64,000 bases of DNA from Flavobacteriales bacterium (lineage in GTDB: Bacteria; Bacteroidota; Bacteroidia; Flavobacteriales_F; PHOS-HE28). Position numbers and translations under genes: made by a program. The first letter of the stretch is position 1. The number at the start of each line of letters is the position of its first letter. Of the stretch, positions 5,020 through 59,021 are shown in pieces. The stretch is taken from NCBI GenBank assembly GCA_019912395.1, contig JAIOIH010000026.1:20812-84811 (forward strand), written 5' to 3'. A model generated the notes under the pieces. That model ran no database searches. It was not told where the DNA came from and saw only the letters and a program-made list of their open reading frames with translations.

Positions 5020-6629
5020 GAACCCTTCTTTCCACTGGCCTTGCTTTGTTGTCCCTTGCACTTATTGCCCAGGAACCACGCTGGGCCTCGCCGCCCAAGC
5101 TGGTGGTGGGCATCGTGGTGGACCAGATGCGCGTGGACAACATCTACCGCTATTGGGGCAACTTCGGTGACGGAGGTTTTCGGCGATTGGTGCGCGAGGG
5201 ATCCTTCCAGCGCGACGTCCATTTCAACTACGTGCCCACCCAGACCGGGCCCGGCCATGCCAGCATCTACACCGGCACCACCCCGGCGCGCCACGGCATT
5301 GTGGCGAACGATAGGTATGACCGCTCGACGAGGCGTACCATTTATTGCGCCCTGGACGCCTCGGTAACACCCGTGGGTACGGAGAGCAGCCGTGCGCAGC
5401 GATCTCCCGGGCAACTGCTTGCCACCACCTTGGCGGATGAACTGGAGCTGCGTACCGACCGCCGCTCGCGCACGGTGGGCATCGCGATGAAGGACCGGTC
5501 GGCCATCATGCCCATGGGGCGCATGGGGGATGCCGCCTACTGGTATGTCGGTGGCGATGAAGGGAAGTTCATCACGAGTTCCTGGTACATGAAGCAGTTG
5601 CCCAAGTGGGTGGAAACCTTCAATGAAAAACGGCTGGCCGCCAAGTACATGGACCAAACGTGGGACATGGCATTGCCCCGTGACCGCTATCACACGCCGC
5701 TGCCCGATGTCAATCCATACGAGGAGTCCTGGGGGAATGGCATCGCGCCTTCACTTCCCCTTGACATGGCCGCATTGAGCAAGGGAGGAACGAACCTGAG
5801 CCTGCTTCCCTACATCCCTTGGGGCAACACGCTCACCACCGACATGGCCATCGCCGCGATAGAGGGGGATTCCCTGGGCGCGGACCATGTGACGGACCTG
5901 TTGGCCGTGAGCTACGGCAGCATCGATGAGCTGCAGCATGCCATGGGGCAACGTTCCGTGGAAGGGGAGGATGCCTATGTCCGCTTGGATCGTGACCTGG
6001 ACCGTTTGCTGACCTTCCTGGACAAGCAGGTCGGTGCAGGCGAATACACGGTCTTCCTCACCGCTGACCATGGCGGGGCCGATGTCCCGGCCTATTTGCG
6101 CGACCTGAAGGGCAGTGCGGGATACACGTCCATGGTCGAACTCCGTTCGTGGCTGGGCGGGCGGGGCTTTGCGGCGGCGATCGATACGATCAAGAAGGAC
6201 CAGATCTACCTGGTGCCCAGTGCCGCGCCGGGTACGGCGGATGCCATGGCCAAGGTGTTGAACGAGCATCCGGCGATCGCCTATGCGGTAAGCGCGGACC
6301 GCTTGCTGGAAGCCCCTGAATTCTCCGGCTATGCCAAGGCGATCGCCAACGGCTTCATGCGGCAGCGTTGTGGTGATGTGGTTTTTGCGATGCAACCGGG
6401 CTTCCTGCGCAGTTATCCGGAATGGGACGGCAAGGGTTCGGACCATGGAACGGCCTGGAACTACGACACCCAGGTGCCCGTGATCTTCTTCGGCAAGGGC
6501 GTGGCCAAGGGGGAAGTGCTGCGCCGGACCTCCATCACGGACGTAGTTCCCACCGTGTGTGCGATCATCGGCATGGCGCTGCCGAACGCTGCGGACGGGC
6601 AGGCGGTGCCGGAGGCTGTACAGCACTGA
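5016..6629 (+). CDS. Alkaline-phosphatase-superfamily enzyme (nucleotide pyrophosphatase / phosphodiesterase-like, PafA-like)
   Basis: Start was trimmed to ATG 5016, which overlaps the crcB stop (ATGA) and gives the signal peptide MRTLLSTGLALLSLALIAQ. The NPP/AP core motif PTQTGPGHASIYTGTTP has a Thr nucleophile. Length is about 537 aa. The track ORF starting at 4644 is a GTG-extended artifact overlapping crcB. Confidence 0.8.
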   Translation: MRTLLSTGLALLSLALIAQEPRWASPPKLVVGIVVDQMRVDNIYRYWGNFGDGGFRRLVREGSFQRDVHFNYVPTQTGPGHASIYTGTTPARHGIVANDRYDRSTRRTIYCALDASVTPVGTESSRAQRSPGQLLATTLADELELRTDRRSRTVGIAMKDRSAIMPMGRMGDAAYWYVGGDEGKFITSSWYMKQLPKWVETFNEKRLAAKYMDQTWDMALPRDRYHTPLPDVNPYEESWGNGIAPSLPLDMAALSKGGTNLSLLPYIPWGNTLTTDMAIAAIEGDSLGADHVTDLLAVSYGSIDELQHAMGQRSVEGEDAYVRLDRDLDRLLTFLDKQVGAGEYTVFLTADHGGADVPAYLRDLKGSAGYTSMVELRSWLGGRGFAAAIDTIKKDQIYLVPSAAPGTADAMAKVLNEHPAIAYAVSADRLLEAPEFSGYAKAIANGFMRQRCGDVVFAMQPGFLRSYPEWDGKGSDHGTAWNYDTQVPVIFFGKGVAKGEVLRRTSITDVVPTVCAIIGMALPNAADGQAVPEAVQH

Positions 6630-6768
6630 TCCGCGTTATTCGGATATCGGGATGGTAAGCATGTTGCTCCAATGACCTCGTGTCAGTCGGGTAATGGTGC
6701 GTTCATCCGACTTTTCGGCACCGGGGGACTGGCGCGGCGTTGCGTGGTGATCTAAGTTAGCTCCGTCA

Positions 6769-8121
6769 ATGCCACCGCACCTTCTCCTCCGGGGGATCAC
6801 CTTCTTCCTGCTCATCGGCTCCTTTACCCTTCTGGAGGCCCAATCCACCTTGTCGCTCCTGGCGTTGGGGACATCGGATTCCATTGCCGTTACGGTCTAT
6901 GCGGGTGATCCGGAGGAGGGGGTCCCCGTGCTCCGCGCGGACTGGACTGGAATGGAGGGGAACACCCCGGGTTTCCGTCTTGATCGGCTGAAGAATTTCG
7001 GGACAGGACACGCCATCGCGCTGAGCGAATTGATCGTTGCCGGTGTGGAACAGTATCTCGATCAGCGGATCCACTTCACGCGCAACGGCGTGCGCACGGA
7101 CATCCCGGTGGCCGGGCTTATCCAGGGTATCGACAAGATGATCGCCTTGTCCGCGTCCCATGTCGGCGCACCTGCGGTGGGACTGTCCGAGGCCACGCAA
7201 AAGCAGCTGGCACGGGTTAGCGGCATTGATTGGAGCCAAGCCAGTTTCGGAGTGGATGGCGGGGAGGACCAGGAGAAGTACTTGGCCATCTCCTTCTATG
7301 TCCGCGCCCAGCGGCAGGAACTGGAGCGACAGTTGCGCAACGACCTGATCCCCTTGTCCGGCATTCGGCCCCTGCTTGCACAGGAGGGGTCCATCGGCAC
7401 GGTCGATAGGAGTGAGCAGGTGCCCACGGTGTGCAGCACGGTGTTCGACGACGACAATTTCCTCTGCGCCCTGGACCTGCGGGTGGACAGTGATGCGGCC
7501 ATGCCGGATGTACGGCTCACCGATGCGATGCTCACGGATATCGCCTCCAAGGCGGAAACCTTCCGGAGCACGGAGCCCGAACCCAAACTGCGCAAGCGGG
7601 ACCGCTGGTTGAAGGCGGAGCTGGACGCCATCAACCGCAGGATCGATCAGAGCGACCAGCGCAAGGAACTCTGGGTACTGCGTGATCGGATGGACGACAT
7701 GGAGGGGCGATTGGATGATATCGGCATGCAGGTGGACGAGCTGAACCGGGAACGCACCCTTTCCGGCACTACGGAAAACCCGGTGGCCAACCTGAGCGCA
7801 CTGGTGGGTCGGAACGTCACCGTTCATTTTGCCAGAGGCTCCTCGGAGCTGGGCACCACGGAGAAGGCCCTGCTCAATGAGGTGGTGCGGGCCATGGGGT
7901 TGGCCCCGGAAGGTCGGGTCCTGGTGACCGGTTACGCGGACCGCAGCGGATCGCCCGCCCTGAACCTGGCCCTCAGTGAGCGGCGGGCGAAAGCGGTACG
8001 GAACTATCTGCTCCTGCACGGCATTGGCGGTGAGCGCGTGCTGTTGAACTATTTCGGTGCCAGCCAAAGCTCCGGCACGGACCCTGCAGAGCGCCGGGTG
8101 GAGCTGGAGTGGGTCCGTTAG
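6769..8121 (+). CDS. OmpA-family protein (secreted, coiled-coil middle, C-terminal OmpA peptidoglycan-binding domain)
   Basis: Signal peptide. C-terminal OmpA_C motif VTGYADRSGSPALNLALSERRAKAVRNYL. Coiled-coil stretch RKELWVLRDRMDDMEGRLDDIGMQVDELNRER. Confidence 0.75.
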   Translation: MPPHLLLRGITFFLLIGSFTLLEAQSTLSLLALGTSDSIAVTVYAGDPEEGVPVLRADWTGMEGNTPGFRLDRLKNFGTGHAIALSELIVAGVEQYLDQRIHFTRNGVRTDIPVAGLIQGIDKMIALSASHVGAPAVGLSEATQKQLARVSGIDWSQASFGVDGGEDQEKYLAISFYVRAQRQELERQLRNDLIPLSGIRPLLAQEGSIGTVDRSEQVPTVCSTVFDDDNFLCALDLRVDSDAAMPDVRLTDAMLTDIASKAETFRSTEPEPKLRKRDRWLKAELDAINRRIDQSDQRKELWVLRDRMDDMEGRLDDIGMQVDELNRERTLSGTTENPVANLSALVGRNVTVHFARGSSELGTTEKALLNEVVRAMGLAPEGRVLVTGYADRSGSPALNLALSERRAKAVRNYLLLHGIGGERVLLNYFGASQSSGTDPAERRVELEWVR

Positions 8122-21768: not shown

Positions 21769-23589
21769 CTATTGCTTCACCCAAACCGCACGCAGCACGC
21801 TGCCGTCCGCGCCGGATGCCTCGATCAGGTAGGTGCCCACCGCGAGTTCACCCACATCGATGCCTTCAGCGCCTTTGCCGGAATGGCCTGTGAACGAACC
21901 TTGCATGGTCAGGATCCGCCAATCCGTGATCGTGCGCGATCCATCGGCCACAAGACGCAGTACGTTCCGGGCTGGATTCGGAACCACCCGGACCGGTGTG
22001 CGTTCTCTTTCCGCGAGCCCGTCCGCATTGTCCCGCACGAATTCCCAAAGCATCAACCGGCCATTGCCTTGATCGCTGGTGTAATTCACGGATCCCGTGT
22101 AGCTGCCGGAAGTGATCGTGCCGGAACCAACGAGCGTGAGCACCTCGTCGTTGTCATAGCCGGTCATGGTCAGTTCGTACCGGTCCACATGCCCTTCCGA
22201 CCAGGGCAGGCCCGAAACGTTCAGTTCCACCGTTCCCGTATCCGGCCCGGGGTCCGGGGCGGGAAGCACCACGTACACGGTATCCCCATTCGTGGTACGA
22301 CCGCCAAGTGCCATGTGCGGAGCATTGATCGCACATGCTATCCGGTCCGTGGCGGTCAACATGCGGTTCATCGCCATGTAGGCGAAGGCGGCGGGCTTGG
22401 GCGCGAAGGTCGGCTTGGAATAGAACATGCCCAGGCAACAGGTCGCTGCGGTGGTGTCGTTGTCCGTCATGCTCGCGGCGTGCGCCATGACAAAGCCGCG
22501 GTCGTTCATTTCAATGATGCCCCGTATCCGGTCCAAGCCATAGTCCAAGCTGTTCCATCCTGCCGAACCGAACGCAGGGTTGAGCACGCCCCACTCCGCA
22601 TTGATCAGGTTCGCATCCGGGAAGAAGGTGTTCCTCCAACCTTGTGCAATGCCCGCCTTCGTGCTGTCGTAGCCCCCAAAGGCATCCGCGGAATAGGGGT
22701 GAACACTGAGGAAGTCCATCCGCGTGGAACTGTCGCGTGCAATGGAAAGGAATTGGACGGGGAAGAGGTTCAGGAAGCTCTGCATCGCGAAACTGCAGCA
22801 ACCCAATTTGACGTGCGGCGAAAGCGCCGGGTCGGCTTCCACCTCATCGGCCAGCGCGGCCATCATGGCGTGCAATTGTGCAGCAGTGCCGTCCCAGAAA
22901 GGCGTTAGCCCGGGAAACTGGTCCGGCTCGTTCCACACCTCGAACCACTTGACATTCCGTGTGGTGTACAGGTGTTTCACGAGCTGATAGAACACCCGGC
23001 CGTAGACCAGGGGATCGATCGGCGGTGCTTGGCGGATCCCATTGTCCCAACCCAACAAGTGGCAAGGTGGGTTCCAATGGATGCACGGATAATAGGCCGG
23101 TGTATCCACGCTGGCCAGCGTGAAGGGCATCGCGGCCATGTCCAGGAACGGTTCGGCTCCCATGGCATGCACCACATCGATCAGTGAATCCACATAGCTG
23201 AGATCGTAGTTGCTGGGCTCGTTCGCACCGGCCATCGTGTTCGGTCCGCGATAGAACTCCGTCCATAAGTTCTTCAGCACCGTGGTGTCGGTGGAGTAGT
23301 GGTCCGCGCTGCCGGGGTCGTCGAAACGCGCCGTGGAAACGCGGACGAAGCGGGGCTTCAACCGGGCCATTTCACTCGCGAATCCCGGGTCGTCGATGAA
23401 CTGGACATGTGGTCCGACCACACTGGGGTTTCCGCCAGCCCCGGTGATCAAATGCATCTCGTAATGATCGCCCCACAACGGTGTGATCGTGCCGACCACG
23501 TTGGAGGCATCCACGCTGATGGTGATCTGCGCACCAGCGGAAAAGGGCAGAACGATCAACACGAAGTGCAGCCAACGGATTCCCATCAT
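21769..23589 (-). CDS. Clan GH-A (TIM-barrel) glycoside hydrolase with T9SS C-terminal sorting domain
   Basis: The track start at 23595 is a TTG; the ATG start at 23589 was used, giving the signal peptide MMGIRWLHFVLIVLPFSAGA. Catalytic acid/base-type motif WFEVWNEPD. C-terminal VRVVPNPARNVLRLV...LAVGTYLIEA CTD. Confidence 0.65.
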   Translation of the reverse strand: MMGIRWLHFVLIVLPFSAGAQITISVDASNVVGTITPLWGDHYEMHLITGAGGNPSVVGPHVQFIDDPGFASEMARLKPRFVRVSTARFDDPGSADHYSTDTTVLKNLWTEFYRGPNTMAGANEPSNYDLSYVDSLIDVVHAMGAEPFLDMAAMPFTLASVDTPAYYPCIHWNPPCHLLGWDNGIRQAPPIDPLVYGRVFYQLVKHLYTTRNVKWFEVWNEPDQFPGLTPFWDGTAAQLHAMMAALADEVEADPALSPHVKLGCCSFAMQSFLNLFPVQFLSIARDSSTRMDFLSVHPYSADAFGGYDSTKAGIAQGWRNTFFPDANLINAEWGVLNPAFGSAGWNSLDYGLDRIRGIIEMNDRGFVMAHAASMTDNDTTAATCCLGMFYSKPTFAPKPAAFAYMAMNRMLTATDRIACAINAPHMALGGRTTNGDTVYVVLPAPDPGPDTGTVELNVSGLPWSEGHVDRYELTMTGYDNDEVLTLVGSGTITSGSYTGSVNYTSDQGNGRLMLWEFVRDNADGLAERERTPVRVVPNPARNVLRLVADGSRTITDWRILTMQGSFTGHSGKGAEGIDVGELAVGTYLIEASGADGSVLRAVWVKQ

Positions 23590-23702
23590 CTTCAAAACGA
23601 AGGTAGTGAGGGATCAAGAGGGAGGCCCATACGCGAAGGCCGGCGCGGAATATTCCGCGCCGGCCTTCAATTGTCCAATTGTCTGATCGCCCGATCGTCC
23701 GA

Positions 23703-25514
23703 TCAATACGCATACTTTCCCTCCGCGATCAACTTCTTCGCGATCGCCTTCCGCAGCTCAGCGGTGTTCAGGTTCGTCGCTTTCGTGAAGCGCTTCGCAC
23801 CCATCAGCATCGCGCGCTGCTCATCGCCATCGGCGAAGTTGTTCACCGCCTCCTTCGCGTACTTGTGGATGCGGTCCGCCGCGTCGTGGATGTAGAGTTG
23901 GGTCATCGCCACCTGCTCCGCGATCGCAGCATCTCCCTTCATTCCTGCCAACTTCAAGGTGCGTAGCAAGGTGCTTTCCGCCAGGTAGGTGTCGATCACC
24001 ATGTCCGCGATGTGCATCAAGGTCTCCTGGTGCTTCGCCAGTTCAAGGCCCAGCTTCTGCGCGGCCCCACCGGCCACCATCAGCACGGCCTTCTTGAAGT
24101 TCGCCACCATGCGCTTCTCGTCGCCGAGGAGTGAATCATCCGGTTCCGGCATGTCGGGAATGCCCATCAGCTCCGCGGCCACGGCCTGCGCCGGACCCAT
24201 CAGGTCCAGTTGGCCCTTCATGGCGCGCTTCAGCAGCATGTCCACCGTGAGCATGCGGTTGATCTCGTTCGTGCCCTCGAAGATCCGGTTGATCCGGCTA
24301 TCGCGGTAGGCGCGCTCCACGGGGCTCTCGGCGCTATAGCCCATGCCGCCATAGATCTGCACGCCCTCGTCGCACACGTAGTCCAGGCACTCGCTCCCGG
24401 CCACTTTCAGGATGGCTGCTTCGGCCGCGTACTGCTCCACACCTTTCAGCAGGGCCTTCGCATGGTCCGCACCGCCGGCCTTCAGTTCCTCGATCGCGCG
24501 CTCCATGTCCTGGCTGCAGCGGTAGGTCGCGCTTTCCACCACATAGCAGTAGGTCGCTTGGTCGGCGAGCTTCTGGCGGATCGCACCGAACGAACTGATC
24601 GGACGCCCGAATTGCTGCCGCTCGTTGGCATATTTCACGCTCATGTCCACAACGGCCTTTGCCCCGCCCAGAGCGGCACCTGAAAGTTTGATTCGACCGA
24701 TGTTCAGGATGTTCACCGCGATCTTGAAACCGTTGCCGCGCTCGCTCAGCATATTCTCCACCGGCACCTTGCAATCGTTGAAGAACACCTGGCGCGTACT
24801 GCTGCCCTTGATCCCCATCTTCTTCTCCTCCGGGTTCAGCGTGATGCCACCGAAGTCCTTCTCCACAATGAAGGCGCTGAGGTTCTTGTCGGGCTCGCCG
24901 GTCTTGGGGTCCACCACCTTGGCGAACACCGTGAAGATGTCCGCAAAGCCACCGTTGGTGATCCACATCTTTTGGCCGTTCAGGAGGTAGTGCTTGCCGT
25001 CATCGCTCAGCACCGCCTTGGTCTTCCCGCTATTGGCATCGCTGCCGGCGCCGGGCTCGGTGAGGCAGTAGGCGGCCTTCCACTCGCCGGTGGCCAGCTT
25101 GGGGATGTACTTCTGCTTCTGTTCCCCGGTTCCGTAATAGAGGATCGGAAGCGTGCCGATGCCGGTATGTGCCGCGATGGCCACGCTGAAACTATGTCCG
25201 GCCCCGGTCACTTCCGTCAGCAACATGGTGGTCACGAAGTCCTTGCCGAAGCCGCCGAACTCTTCCGGCAAGGAGATGCCCAGCAGCCCGAGTTCACCGG
25301 CCTTTTCAAGCAAACTCTGCATGAGGCCCTCCTCCATGGAATCGATGCGGTCCAAATTGGGCCATACGTTCTGTTCCAGGAATTCACGGGCGCTCTGTGC
25401 GATCATGCGCTGCTCCTCATTGAATTCCTCGGGGATGAAAATCTCCTGCGGATCGCTTTCGCGTATCAGGAACTCACCACCTTGAAGAGCTTTGGTTCTG
25501 GTCTCGTTCGCCAT
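23703..25514 (-). CDS. Acyl-CoA dehydrogenase (long, about 600 aa FadE-like)
   Basis: 603 aa. ACAD N/M/C domains (YCLTEPGAGSD, GQKMWITNGGFAD). C-terminal extension typical of large ACADs. Confidence 0.9.
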   Translation of the reverse strand: MANETRTKALQGGEFLIRESDPQEIFIPEEFNEEQRMIAQSAREFLEQNVWPNLDRIDSMEEGLMQSLLEKAGELGLLGISLPEEFGGFGKDFVTTMLLTEVTGAGHSFSVAIAAHTGIGTLPILYYGTGEQKQKYIPKLATGEWKAAYCLTEPGAGSDANSGKTKAVLSDDGKHYLLNGQKMWITNGGFADIFTVFAKVVDPKTGEPDKNLSAFIVEKDFGGITLNPEEKKMGIKGSSTRQVFFNDCKVPVENMLSERGNGFKIAVNILNIGRIKLSGAALGGAKAVVDMSVKYANERQQFGRPISSFGAIRQKLADQATYCYVVESATYRCSQDMERAIEELKAGGADHAKALLKGVEQYAAEAAILKVAGSECLDYVCDEGVQIYGGMGYSAESPVERAYRDSRINRIFEGTNEINRMLTVDMLLKRAMKGQLDLMGPAQAVAAELMGIPDMPEPDDSLLGDEKRMVANFKKAVLMVAGGAAQKLGLELAKHQETLMHIADMVIDTYLAESTLLRTLKLAGMKGDAAIAEQVAMTQLYIHDAADRIHKYAKEAVNNFADGDEQRAMLMGAKRFTKATNLNTAELRKAIAKKLIAEGKYAY

Positions 25515-47111: not shown

Positions 47112-47558
47112 ATGGAAGTGATCCTCAAACAAGACGTGGAGCATCTCGGTTTCGCCAATGACCTGGTGAAAGTGAAGGACGGCTACGCCCGAAATTTCCT
47201 GCTCCCCCGCAAGCTGGCCGTGGCCGCCACCCCCAGCGAGCGCAAGCAGCTCACCGAGACCCTCAAGCAGCGCGCCCACAAGGAGACCAAACTCCGCGAT
47301 GAGGCCGACAAGAACGCCGCCAAGCTCATCGACCAGACCATCAAGATCGGAGCAAAGGTGGGCGAGAAGGGCCGCATCTTCGGCAGCGTGAACACCATCA
47401 TGCTCAGCGATGCCTTCAAGCAGCTCGGCATCGACCTGGACCGCAAGTACATCAAGCTGAAAGGCGAGGCCATCAAGACCATCGGCACCTACGAGGCCGA
47501 AGTGACCTTCCACCGCGATGTGGTCAAGACCATTTCTTTCGAAGTGGTCGAAGAGTGA
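47112..47558 (+). CDS. rplI: 50S ribosomal protein L9
   Basis: MEVILKQDVEHLGFANDLVKVKDGYARNFLLPRKLA. 148 aa. Confidence 0.92.
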   Translation: MEVILKQDVEHLGFANDLVKVKDGYARNFLLPRKLAVAATPSERKQLTETLKQRAHKETKLRDEADKNAAKLIDQTIKIGAKVGEKGRIFGSVNTIMLSDAFKQLGIDLDRKYIKLKGEAIKTIGTYEAEVTFHRDVVKTISFEVVEE

Positions 47559-47580: not shown

Positions 47581-47615
47581 AAGGGCCGTTTCGTGAAGAG
47601 GCGGCCCTTTTTTGA
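47581..47615 (+). terminator. Putative intrinsic terminator after rplI
   Basis: AAGGGCCG...CGGCCCTT 8-bp stem with a roughly 13-nt loop, followed by TTTTTT. Confidence 0.5.
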
Positions 47616-47628
47616 TGCCCGTCCCTCA

Positions 47629-48000
47629 AGTTGCATGGCCATGCAAGTGTCGATCTACAGGCCGATGAATGAGATTGTGTCACGCACGCATTTCCTTCCG
47701 AATGTGCCCCGACCTGCATCCGATCATGGAAAGCGTCCATGATGTGGGATGCTCCTGGCCCGGTGACCCAATGCCTCCTGCGGTGCGCTTTCTGACAGTT
47801 GCATGGCCATGCAAGTGTCGATCTACAGGCCGATGAACGAGATTGCGTCACGCATGCATTTCCTTCCGAATGTGCCCCGATCTGCATCCGGTCGTGGAAA
47901 GCCTCCATGGTGTGGATGCTCTTCGCACGGTTACCCCAATACCTCCTGCGGTGCGCTTCCTGACAGTTGCATGGCCATGCAACTGTCGTCCAACAATACC
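47629..48000. repeat. 168-bp tandem direct repeat, about 2.2 copies at roughly 90 % identity. Each unit begins with the perfect 16-bp palindrome TTGCATGGCCATGCAA.
   Basis: Unit starts (AGTTGCATGGCCATGCAA) at 47629, 47797 and 47965. The third copy is truncated after about 35 bp. Overlapping track ORFs (47518..47742, 47803..48165, 47567..48091) merely translate the repeat. Confidence 0.8.
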
Positions 48001-48061
48001 AAACCTCGAGCAGTCCGCGAAGCGTTTTCGCTTTTCCCGAACGCGTGTAGCTTTCGCCGCC

Positions 48062-49366
48062 ATGTCCGAAGCCGACCTCGAACAGCAACAATTGCTGAAA
48101 TTCCTATCCCGCTTGGGCCAGGCCGAACTCGCTGCAGGCAATGCCGTTGCGTTGGTAGAGCGTGACTTGGGCCAGATCGCCAGGCGCAATGGTCAGGAGA
48201 ACACGGTGGTCTTCGCGTTGCCCACCGTGCTGATCGTCCAATCCGCGGAAGGGCAGGAGCATCGCGTACACCTCACCCCCGGTCCATACCGCGTTGGGGA
48301 CCTGCGCTTCGATCAGATGGAAGGGGTGTTGGAGATTGCACGGGAAGCCCGGTCGGGTAGGATCACTCCGGCCCAAGGGCTGCGGAAATTGGATGCGGTC
48401 TGGCGCATGAAGCACCGCTATGGCGATGCGGGTTTTGTGCTGGGCTACCTCGTAACCACCATCGGCATTGCCCTGATCCTGCGGCCCACATGGACCGGCT
48501 TGGGCTATGTGGCCGGGCTGGGCCTGGCCTGTGCACTGTTGCTGGTGGCAGTGCGGAGGCAACCCGTATGGAATGCAGTGATGCCCGTAGTGGCGGCCTT
48601 CCTGCTCTCCGCCGCCGTTGCCGTGATGTACCGGTTCGGTGTGCGTGAACCGGCGTTGCAACTATTGATCCCGCCGTTGATCATTTTCCTGCCGGGCAAC
48701 ATGCTCACTGTGGCGGTGGTGGAACTGGCCTTTGCGAACATTGTTTCCGGCGCATCGCGCATGGTGGCCGGGTTCACCCAGCTGATCCTGCTGGCCTTTG
48801 GACTTTTGGGCGGCTTCAAGGCCTTCGGCGGTGAATTCCCCTCGGATCTTGGTAACACGGACCGGCTGGCTCCGTGGTTGGCTTGGGCCGGCGTGGTGCT
48901 GTTCGCCTTGGGCTTGCACCTGTTCAAGAGCAGCCGCAGGCGGTCACTCCTTTGGATGATGGCCACCATGTTGATGGCCTTCCTCGGACAGAACATCGCG
49001 GGAAGATTCCTCGACGGTTCCTCCACGGCATTCTTCGGCGCGGCGGTGATGACCATCACGGCCCTGGTGATCGAATACCGCTTGAAAGGCCCTCCGGCAT
49101 TGGTCTCCATCATCCCGGCCTTCTGGCTGCTGGCGCCCGGTTCCTTCGGCCTGGTCAGTGTCACCACCATGGCGATGGATGGCCAGGGCACGGCGGGAAG
49201 CATATTGCAGCTACTTTTCATTCTCACCGCGATCGCCACGGGTTGCTTGATCGGGGCCTTCGTGTATAGCGGCCTGCTCCATGTGCGCAAGGCGCGCTGG
49301 TGGCGCTCCGACCCGTTGCCGCCCGGAGGCATCACGGGAACCGGAGGGAACGGGGACCACCTTTGA
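48062..49366 (+). CDS. Threonine/serine exporter (ThrE) family membrane protein
   Basis: Trimmed to ATG 48062 ([19 protein letters not shown]). Soluble N-terminal region then about 10 TM helices (ThrE/DUF1212 + DUF3815-like organisation). The track start 47843 lies inside the tandem repeat. Confidence 0.6.
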
Positions 49367-58366: not shown

Positions 58367-58412
58367 GTCGGAATAGCTGAAAATTGAAACCGAGCACTTG
58401 GCGACGTCCTTT

Positions 58413-58466
58413 TTCAGCTTTCCCGTTTCAACCTTCAGCTTTCCAGTTTCAGCCTTCAGCTATAGC
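58413..58466. repeat. 21-bp tandem repeat, about 2.5 copies (TTCAGCTTTCCCGTTTCAACC / TTCAGCTTTCCAGTTTCAGCC / TTCAGCTATAGC)
   Basis: Directly visible between the convergent lhgO gene and the hypothetical gene ending at 58476. Confidence 0.5.
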
Positions 58467-58475
58467 ATAAAAACC

Positions 58476-59021
58476 TCAAGCTGTCACCCGCAGATCGTCC
58501 AGAAGGTCGGCCCAGTCCCAGAGGCAATACTGCATCAGCTTGTTGATGCGGCCCAGCACGATCGGGTTGGGGGCCTTCTGCTCGCGGAAATAGGCGTCCT
58601 GATGGCGGAACAGGTCGTACTTGTGGAAGATCGCCTTGCTCATCGCGTACACCGTGTTCTTGCTCGGGTGGTTGATGCGTGCCATGAAATGCTGCAATGC
58701 GATGGTCTCCGTTTCCAGCTCGGCGGCCGACGTGTCCATCAGCGGTGCAAACTTGGAGTAGGCGTGCTGGGCAAGCCGATGGTCCTGGCCGGGAGACAAG
58801 TGTTTGGGGGCCTCCATGAGGTTCCCCGCAAAAAGGATCAAGGCGAAGAGCTCGTCGTCACCCGGGCCGAAGATCGGTCGCGTCACGAATTCGCCGGCCT
58901 CCTCCAGCTCGGCCACCACGGTGGGGTAGCCCTGTTCGGTGAGGCGCAGCACGGCGTTCACGAACACGTTCGCTAGCTTGTCCTCACTGATCTTCTTCTT
59001 TCCGAAAATTGTTCCGATCAT
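58476..59021 (-). CDS. Hypothetical protein
   Basis: 181-aa ORF MIGTIFGKKKISEDKLANVF... with no recognisable family. The coordinates are the track's. My own line count places the ATG 1 nt higher, at 59022. Confidence 0.45.
   Translation of the reverse strand: MIGTIFGKKKISEDKLANVFVNAVLRLTEQGYPTVVAELEEAGEFVTRPIFGPGDDELFALILFAGNLMEAPKHLSPGQDHRLAQHAYSKFAPLMDTSAAELETETIALQHFMARINHPSKNTVYAMSKAIFHKYDLFRHQDAYFREQKAPNPIVLGRINKLMQYCLWDWADLLDDLRVTA

Follow-up and report, generated by a model that had tools for sequence, protein, structure and literature searches.

A palindrome-bounded cassette array between rplI and a ThrE-family gene of an uncultured Flavobacteriales bacterium

Most known mosaic arrays bounded by palindromes come from Proteobacteria (REP/BIME, NIME/NTS), where they opened the way to the discovery of domesticated transposases (RAYT) and, in 2025, of a family of site-specific single-strand nucleases (Ssn). 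In NIMEs, the 20-bp dRS3 inverted repeats flank more than 100 families of filler DNA of 19-214 bp, the number and length of the arrays vary between strains, and the filler is lower in GC (PMC1797815). Some dRS3 are hairpin repeats with an orientation, and the single-strand nuclease Ssn cuts them (PMC11893778); the BIME-2 arrays of E. coli are tandem, vary in copy number and in their linkers, and are a target of a Y1 transposase (PMC3333891). Here we describe an array that resembles these systems in a Flavobacteriales bacterium of the Bacteroidota (assembly GCA_019912395.1, contig JAIOIH010000026.1, positions 20,812 to 84,811 of the forward strand). This whole stretch of 64,000 nucleotides is referred to as the window, and coordinates given without a contig handle are positions within it. 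The array lies within the region 47629-48000 between rplI and a gene of the ThrE family, and it is built from copies of a 16-bp palindrome, TTGCATGGCCATGCAA, that bound stretches of non-coding filler which we call cassettes.

We favor, with moderate confidence, the reading that this locus is an intergenic mosaic array like a NIME or BIME, in which the palindrome would be a site for an enzyme or protein encoded elsewhere. The palindrome is read as an enzyme site because its behavior matches that of the palindrome-based mosaic elements of Proteobacteria. The traits that make it worth attention are a 16-mer conserved across lineages, a one-sided tag, and cassette turnover at the level of strains. 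With a similar but unrelated element present in uncultured activated-sludge Flavobacteriales, a matching hairpin- or site-specific DNA enzyme may await discovery in the Bacteroidota.

Structure of the repeat

Tandem Repeats Finder recovers a repeat of period 168 at 47629-47988, with 2.1 copies, 91% matches, 1% indels and a score of 599. Copies of TTGCATGGCCATGCAA without mismatch start at 47631, 47799 and 47967 and are thus spaced by 168 bp. A preliminary description, made from the sequence alone, had reported three unit starts 168 bp apart with about 90% identity, each opening with a perfect 8+8 palindrome and all lying between the rplI terminator and the ThrE-family gene, and these features are confirmed here, the palindrome in 3 of 3 units. 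The same description presented the locus as a 168-bp unit in 2.2 copies; the repeat stands, but the unit is better described as three palindromes (P1 to P3) bounding two 152-bp cassettes, A1 and A2. The two cassettes are 90% identical; 14 substitutions and two 1-nt indels that compensate each other set them apart. The start of the ThrE-family gene, previously put at 48064, is corrected to 48062.

Elsewhere in the 64-kb window there are no further TTGCATGGCCATGCAA sites, even with up to 3 mismatches allowed. Shuffled controls searched with the same tolerance average 0.51 sites, a count of 3 being reached in 1 of 100. A lone perfect palindrome of 16 bp is ordinary, with lengths of 12-20 bp being reached in shuffled windows, and the unusual feature of this locus is the occurrence of three identical palindromes in register. 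The last of them, P3, forms part of a perfect 26-mer palindrome, GACAGTTGCATGGCCATGCAACTGTC. Folded as DNA hairpins, the palindromes have predicted energies of -4.6 to -11.6 kcal/mol and z-scores down to -5.7, and they lie outside all called genes. The array starts 18 nt past the rplI terminator and ends 79 nt before the ThrE-family start codon, leaving a native spacer that contains a conserved GTAGCTTTCGCCGCC box. Within this box the sequence TAGCTTTC at 48048-48055 has one mismatch to the Bacteroidetes -7 motif TAnnTTTG.

Insertion, strain variation and dispersal

Homologs of ThrE place the source of the window in an uncultured Flavobacteriales lineage. Eight relative lineages with ThrE proteins 78-86% identical keep the gene order dnaX / rpsF-rpsR-rplI-ThrE. 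Their rplI-ThrE spacers measure only 87-174 bp, and the palindrome is absent from them even at up to 3 mismatches. Since these syntenic relatives have short spacers without the palindrome, the comparison indicates that the array is a recent insertion specific to one species-level lineage. What the relatives' spacers do contain is a terminator hairpin equivalent to that of rplI in the window (spacers of L021-L041) and, directly before the ATG, a conserved box, GTAGCTT(T)CGCC, that is similar to the -7 promoter motif of Bacteroidetes. The terminator and the promoter are therefore old, and the array sits between both and belongs to neither. Because the native promoter region is intact, the effect of the array on ThrE is probably neutral. 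Other small repeats were seen in the same spacer of relatives without the palindrome, namely GTGAAGGGGTGAAGAAGTGAAG... in L035-L038 (2839-3000) and GATCATCTGATC-type repeats in L040 (667-825) and L041 (379-552), and repeats seem to accumulate readily in this spacer.

Contigs of the same species were found through exact RplI and RpsR proteins in ENA, JGI, NCBI and Logan assemblies. With P for a palindrome and A or B for a cassette, the three-palindrome array P-A-P-A-P is present with a few single-nucleotide polymorphisms in at least six contigs from separate ENA, JGI and NCBI assemblies. Two contigs (L013 and L015) carry a five-palindrome version, P-A-P-B-P-A-P-A-P, with spacings of 167, 132, 167 and 167-168 bp, in which cassette B (116 bp, 45% GC) has no similarity to A. 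The flanks of L013 are 99-100% identical to the window on both sides yet its array differs, so this is turnover at the level of strains. Every one of the differences between strains (2 vs 4 cassettes) begins and ends exactly at a palindrome, and the array changes by the gain, loss or exchange of whole cassettes at these sites. A-type cassettes are 83-99% identical among themselves and have a mosaic look. The conserved unit is the palindrome and not the 168-bp segment, and the filler is interchangeable. The short-read Logan contigs all end ~30 nt inside the first cassette; the array explains such assembly breaks just after rplI, and it marks a hypervariable locus useful for strain typing. In one population (L011, 4951-6254, the same contig as L043) ThrE is called as two open reading frames (ORFs) of 240 and 216 aa, which suggests a frameshift or pseudogene.

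When public genomes and metagenomes were scanned by pattern, arrays with the same 16-mer turned up at three further loci in other Flavobacteriales. Both large scans fixed bases adjoining the palindrome, so the true spread of the family is underestimated. Between rsmA and mgtE of the metagenome-assembled genome (MAG) JAHBUL01 there are 2 palindromes 244 bp apart, and between kdtA and mazG on contig Ga0209170_1000014 there are 3 palindromes 101 bp apart. The third locus, mlaF-gcvP of an activated-sludge Flavobacteriales species (GCA_023957375.1), has 5 or 8 palindromes and hence 4 or 7 cassettes. Its complete five-palindrome arrays hold four mutually unrelated cassettes of 78-86 nt (S1-S4), and the eight-palindrome version arises from duplication of the 299-bp block S2-S3-S4. 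In a relative with 86% MlaF identity the mlaF-gcvP spacer is 64 bp long and contains no palindrome. These palindrome-bounded arrays are apparently an undescribed family of non-coding arrays in uncultured Flavobacteriales, and a literature search on the palindrome string found no paper.

Across the arrays the palindromes are spaced by 94-104, 101, 132, 167-168 or 244 bp and the cassettes measure 78-228 bp. The cassette families (A, B, S1-S4, one at L001 and one at L006) are mutually unrelated, and cassettes of different loci have similarity scores like those of shuffled sequence and no common motif. The motifs ATGAACGAGAT, CCTTCCGAAT and CAACC..TGATG, which had seemed common to cassettes of different loci, were rejected as not above the shuffled null. 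What all loci have in common is the 16-mer and a short one-sided flank (GTGTCG, CTGTCG, ATGTCG, TTGACG or CTGTGG), the flanks reading (g)ACAn on the left and nTGTC or CTGTGG on the right. The strand of this tag is uniform within each array. All four arrays start 37-75 nt beyond the stop codon that ends an upstream gene, and each is directed away from that gene; 2 lie between co-directional genes, 2 between convergent genes and 0 between divergent genes. No target-site duplication was found at any array end.

Several further observations touch these arrays. Left of the array L015 is 100% identical to the window, and right of it the identity is 88-94% (ThrE); in the second lineage (L050, L051, L052) the mlaF side is 100% identical and the gcvP side 92-99%. 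These jumps in divergence could fit a recombination hot spot or a recombination breakpoint at the arrays and are a weaker hint, as is the weakly positive GC skew in tag orientation at 4 of 4 loci. In L007 the S2 cassette at mlaF-gcvP is interrupted by an insertion sequence at ~5906-7125 with terminal repeats GGACAAAACGAATGGTC. The ORF of this insertion sequence (270 aa, 6113-6925) gave no Pfam hit at 1e-5, and just outside the left end of the element lies a further two-copy repeat cattgcgag..cctgtgcattcaaca (5815-5880). Single palindromes were also met outside arrays and were set aside as chance or unrelated biology. In two Acidobacteriota MAGs of different orders (L002 at 3324, L003 at 1198) the 16-bp palindrome lies in an identical stretch of more than 70 nt, just upstream of an NYN-domain gene in L002; this shared stretch may be a mobile element or a conserved RNA, seemingly unrelated to the arrays. 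In marine metagenome contigs (L005 at 2000, L009 at 2268) a LysR-type regulator has a start codon (MAMQLDL...) that overlaps with the palindrome, which could be the regulator's own operator, or chance.

Table 1. Features of the rplI-ThrE region, with positions in the window
Feature	Position	Strand	Basis or property
rplI (ribosomal protein L9), last gene of rpsF-rpsR-rplI, upstream neighbor	47112..47558	+	ORF; Pfam Ribosomal_L9_N/C on identical protein
rplI intrinsic terminator, GGGCCG...CGGCCC stem (47583-47607) and TTTTTT	47583..47613	+	Sequence, fold
Palindrome P1, core TTGCATGGCCATGCAA; left flank host sequence, right flank tag GTGTCG	47631..47646	.	DNA hairpin -4.6 kcal/mol
Cassette A1, 152 bp of non-coding filler, GC 0.57	47647..47798	+	Sequence, fold and coding tests
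Palindrome P2, core; with flanks a 26-nt palindrome (47794-47819) with one mismatch	47799..47814	.	DNA hairpin -9.2 kcal/mol
Cassette A2, 152 bp, 90% identical to A1	47815..47966	+	Alignment
Palindrome P3, perfect 26 bp GACAGTTGCATGGCCATGCAACTGTC, core 47967-47982, closes array	47962..47987	.	DNA hairpin -11.6 kcal/mol
Native spacer 5' of ThrE-family gene with conserved GTAGCTTTCGCCGCC box	47983..48061	+	Box kept in array-less relatives
ThrE-family gene (threonine/serine exporter, PF06738), downstream neighbor	48062..49366	+	Gene tables, homologs

Cassette content and competing explanations

A protein-coding repeat or an assembly artefact would be extremely improbable as the source of this pattern. 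A 174-aa ORF on the minus strand does span the array, and the period of 168 is a multiple of 3, but the 167- and 132-bp units in sister strains break every reading frame across units, and the divisibility of the period is a coincidence. A 35-aa ORF (MAMQ...) that starts inside every palindrome was rejected: its variable sites are distributed 7/9/9 by codon position, with no third-position bias, its dN/dS ranges from 0.16 to 2.3, and 4 of 9 variants have lost its stop codon. The ORFs of the array have no Pfam hit, gene callers call no gene in the region, and among 5.8 billion proteins none contains the palindrome-encoded words, so that no candidate arrays emerged from the protein database in this way. 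The preliminary description had likewise judged the repeat non-coding and had named a repetitive protein-coding gene and an assembly artefact as the two scenarios that would overturn it. Both are refuted as far as sequence data allow, and the array is reproduced in at least eight contigs of separate assemblies.

Another possibility is that a transcript, for instance read-through from rplI, is cut or terminated at the palindrome hairpins to give small RNAs, whether as tandem small-RNA genes or in a CRISPR-like manner. The alternation of hairpin repeats with unrelated spacers, whose lengths are alike within one array (78-86 nt in L050), the single orientation of the repeats, co-directional with the upstream gene, and the folding of the whole spacer above shuffles (z of -4.5 and -3.2) would all suit such an array. 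However, this folding signal stems from the palindromes and the terminator, and the cassette interiors fold like dinucleotide shuffles on both strands, with z mostly near 0 and ranging from -2.3 to +1.3. Among nine cassette variants RNAalifold finds 0 compensatory pairs, with the covariation term at +0.83; an apparent double change from AT to GC was discounted because the stem that holds it has only 3 bp. Rfam searches of the repeat with permissive E-values returned no match at gathering score, the weak scores being at chance level (ceN33 inside the repeat with 20.9 bits vs 75, Thr_leader on the rplI terminator with 26.8 vs 55), and four other arrays have no match at the gathering threshold. 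Neither a Bacteroidetes-type promoter nor a sigma-70-type site was found inside the cassettes, the array and the sequence just before it contain no promoter, and a canonical terminator precedes the array. Neither cas nor any other effector family was matched in the 64 kb, the spacers at rplI-ThrE are paralogous, no cassette matches were found in phages, viral contigs or plasmids, and the arrays vary by block duplication rather than by addition at one end. We regard an RNA array as quite unlikely, and the duplicated small RNA proposed in the preliminary description is not supported by the results on Rfam, promoters, folding and covariation. The cassettes have GC contents of 0.45-0.62 vs 0.60 for the window, and no source for them was found in the ~0.5 Mb of related DNA examined. 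A dif site or replication terminus was also considered and rejected, with no switch in the sign of GC skew at the array.

The preliminary description further proposed a duplicated cis-regulatory module or transcription-factor site, which is not supported. More broadly, the palindrome could be the site of a dimeric transcription factor or of a centromere- or nucleoid-type protein, and the array a platform for neighboring genes. The perfect 8+8 symmetry is what dimer sites typically show, a spacing of 168 bp corresponds to 16 helical turns, and palindrome arrays occur in plasmid centromeres such as sopC of F. We nevertheless consider an operator array very improbable. The palindrome is absent from all relatives with the same rplI-ThrE synteny and thus stands outside any conserved control of ThrE, and the conserved promoter-like box of ThrE lies downstream of the array. 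The neighboring genes differ at every locus, with two arrays between convergent genes, and no single sites occur upstream of other genes in the 64 kb. In addition, the spacings of 94-104, 132 and 244 bp are out of helical phase, and a conserved tag on one side is unlike a symmetric dimer site.

Of the three candidates in the preliminary description, a satellite-like element comes closest and points in the right direction, but what is conserved is the palindrome and not the 168-bp segment. A plain local tandem duplication (a minisatellite or variable-number tandem repeat), in which slippage or unequal crossing-over duplicated a 168-bp unit and the palindrome has no machinery of its own, could account for A1 and A2 as 90% identical paralogs and for the simple duplication of a 299-bp block in the second lineage; palindromes also favor slippage. 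Such a duplication leaves unexplained the unrelated 116-bp cassette B bounded by the same palindromes, the four mutually unrelated cassettes at mlaF-gcvP, the identical 16-mer and tag at four unrelated loci in different lineages, and the absence of the palindrome from syntenic relatives. It is unlikely, and the B cassette and the other loci largely refute it. Tandem miniature inverted-repeat transposable elements (MITEs) would offer a mobile alternative, in which 13-bp terminal inverted repeats (CCATGCAAsTGTC ... GACAGTTGCATGG) abut to give the palindrome and a DDE transposase moves the units. Units of 94-244 bp without coding capacity, with unrelated interiors and shared ends, are typical of MITE families (PMC3184786), and an unrelated insertion sequence did enter one array. 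Against this, there is no target-site duplication between units or at the array ends, and the outer boundaries are full 16-bp palindromes rather than half sites. The right flank is conserved independently of the left, so that the ends are not symmetric inverted repeats, and no isolated single units were seen; we therefore give MITEs little credence.

In the NIME- or BIME-like array that we favor, the conserved element would be a hairpin-forming palindrome with an invariant 16-bp core, extending to ~26 bp and oriented by a tag on one side only. It would be repeated head-to-tail, separated by interchangeable, non-coding and unstructured filler cassettes, and recognized by a DNA enzyme or protein encoded elsewhere. 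Candidates for this role are a hairpin- or site-specific recombinase, transposase or nuclease like the Y1 RAYT of REP/BIME, a Piv-type recombinase or Ssn nuclease as at the Neisseria dRS3/NTS, and a tyrosine recombinase. We expect that such an enzyme would seed the element at new sites without target duplication, and that the array would then be amplified and reshuffled by ordinary recombination or slippage, both from palindrome to palindrome and between paralogous cassettes. The sequences themselves show the insertion, the turnover of cassettes, the dispersal of the family and the absence of a coding or RNA signal; the existence and class of the enzyme, like any host effect, are what we infer from these patterns. 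An effect on the host would be secondary and might consist of extra hairpins that insulate ThrE from rplI read-through, or of a recombination hot spot.

Several points weigh against this reading. Among 46 ORFs across the window there is no Pfam match at E<=1e-5 to recombinase, integrase, transposase, GIY-YIG or cas families. Copy number per genome looks low, with one locus in the 64 kb and one in the GTDB representative of L001, the latter under a restrictive pattern. The four independent loci were all found by the exact palindrome, and its "invariance" is partly ascertainment. No excised circles, inversions or empty single-palindrome sites were seen, and for an array merely to expand (A-A; the S2-S3-S4 block) a dedicated enzyme is not required. 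The jumps in divergence at the arrays could also be strain chimeras made at the repeat during metagenome assembly. A bolder proposal, in which an undescribed Flavobacteriales enzyme specific for the tagged palindrome captures arbitrary short DNA between its sites, is a long shot. If true, the array would be an acquisitive, integron- or CRISPR-like store of non-coding DNA, possibly read as RNA, and not a passive selfish repeat.

Three other repeats of the window are recorded here. The longest palindrome in the window, a perfect 34-bp GAAGGCCGGCGCGGAATATTCCGCGCCGGCCTTC at 23635-23668, lies between the minus-strand genes for a GH39-like protein (21769-23595) and an acyl-CoA dehydrogenase (23703-25514) and is probably a terminator hairpin. 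A 25-nt inverted repeat (590-614 / 741-765), 88% complementary with arms 126 nt apart, is found at the junction of two ORFs without Pfam hits. The third is a 21-bp tandem repeat, TTCAGCTTTCCAGTTTCAACC, at 58413-58461 (2.3 copies, 92% matches), inside the ORF 58398-58976, which has no Pfam hit either.

Comparison with described systems

Integron attC sites, including CALIN arrays, are also recombination-site-like inverted repeats that bound cassettes, which are gained and lost exactly at the sites, and the half sites ATGCAAC / GTTGCAT match the attC core sites RYYYAAC / GTTRRRY at 6 of 7 positions each. However, the cassettes here have no ORFs and are only 78-228 bp long, and there is no intI in the 64 kb. 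The sites are identical and perfectly palindromic, rather than defined by structure with extrahelical bases, and the stretch from one half site to the next does not form a single long hairpin, the interiors not being self-complementary. At the mlaF-gcvP locus the likeness to CRISPR arrays lies in the regular spacing of direct repeats that are partly palindromic and in unrelated spacers whose lengths are alike within an array. Compared with CRISPR repeats of 23-47 nt and spacers of 21-72 nt, the spacers here measure 78-228 bp and are often paralogous, the 64 kb contain no cas, there are no phage, viral or plasmid matches, and variation arises through the duplication of blocks instead of additions at a leader end. 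MITEs differ in the points given above: no target-site duplication, full palindromes at the array ends and no solitary units seen here. The mycobacterial MIRU-type variable-number tandem repeats resemble the arrays in their tandem units of 40-170 bp, their position in short co-directional spacers and their strain-variable copy number; unlike the cassettes, MIRU units are homologs of one another wherever they occur, and translational coupling is possible for them, while here the units of different loci are unrelated and only the palindrome is common.

The motifs related to NTS and Ssn are nearer, being hairpins with a one-sided conserved flank, conserved by sequence and not only by structure, and dispersed near genes (PMC11893778). 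The SRM pattern HGTCWYN(0-2)YYVSBRHN(0-5)WNVSBRGN(0-2)RNCYNB had 0 regex matches on both strands of the five arrays and the whole window, there is no GIY-YIG Pfam hit in the window for an ssn of the type cd10448, a gene that the motif often flanks, and NTS repeats are not described as bounding such regular cassette arrays. REP and BIME-2 elements with RAYT share more of the layout, namely an extragenic hairpin palindrome of 20-40 nt with an orienting flank tag, located after gene ends (PMC3333891; PMC3733652), a size range that includes the 26-nt palindrome here. They are also alike in tandem arrays of strain-variable copy number, in variable linkers and in insertion sequences inserted in arrays. 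In contrast, the GTAG/CGTC conserved at the foot of REP palindromes (PMC3333891, PMC3733652) is absent here (0 of 20 sites), all palindromes are in direct orientation rather than alternating as REP and iREP, the stem is perfect instead of imperfect, and the linkers of 78-228 bp are much longer. As to the high copy number (hundreds per genome) and RAYT of REP systems, one locus was found in the window and one in the L001 representative with a restrictive pattern, and the window has no transposase Pfam family.

NIMEs differ from the arrays in the sequence of the repeat, ATTCCC-N8-GGGAAT (dRS3) vs TTGCATGGCCATGCAA, and in host, Neisseria vs a Flavobacteriales MAG of the Bacteroidota. Here the whole 16-mer is invariant, while dRS3 has two 6-bp arms and a variable center; density is apparently far lower, and no associated phage recombinase or Ssn nuclease was seen. 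In architecture, both consist of a short palindrome (20 bp in NIMEs, 16-26 bp here) that bounds many unrelated non-coding fillers in intergenic arrays. In both, repeat number and array length vary between strains at syntenic loci, filler GC tends to be lower and divergence changes at the arrays. The NIME pattern of inverted repeats flanking unrelated filler of ~50-150 bp in strain-variable arrays is found here with 2 vs 4 and 4 vs 7 cassettes. The array belongs to no named family, and in both its architecture and its dynamics it works like a NIME or BIME.

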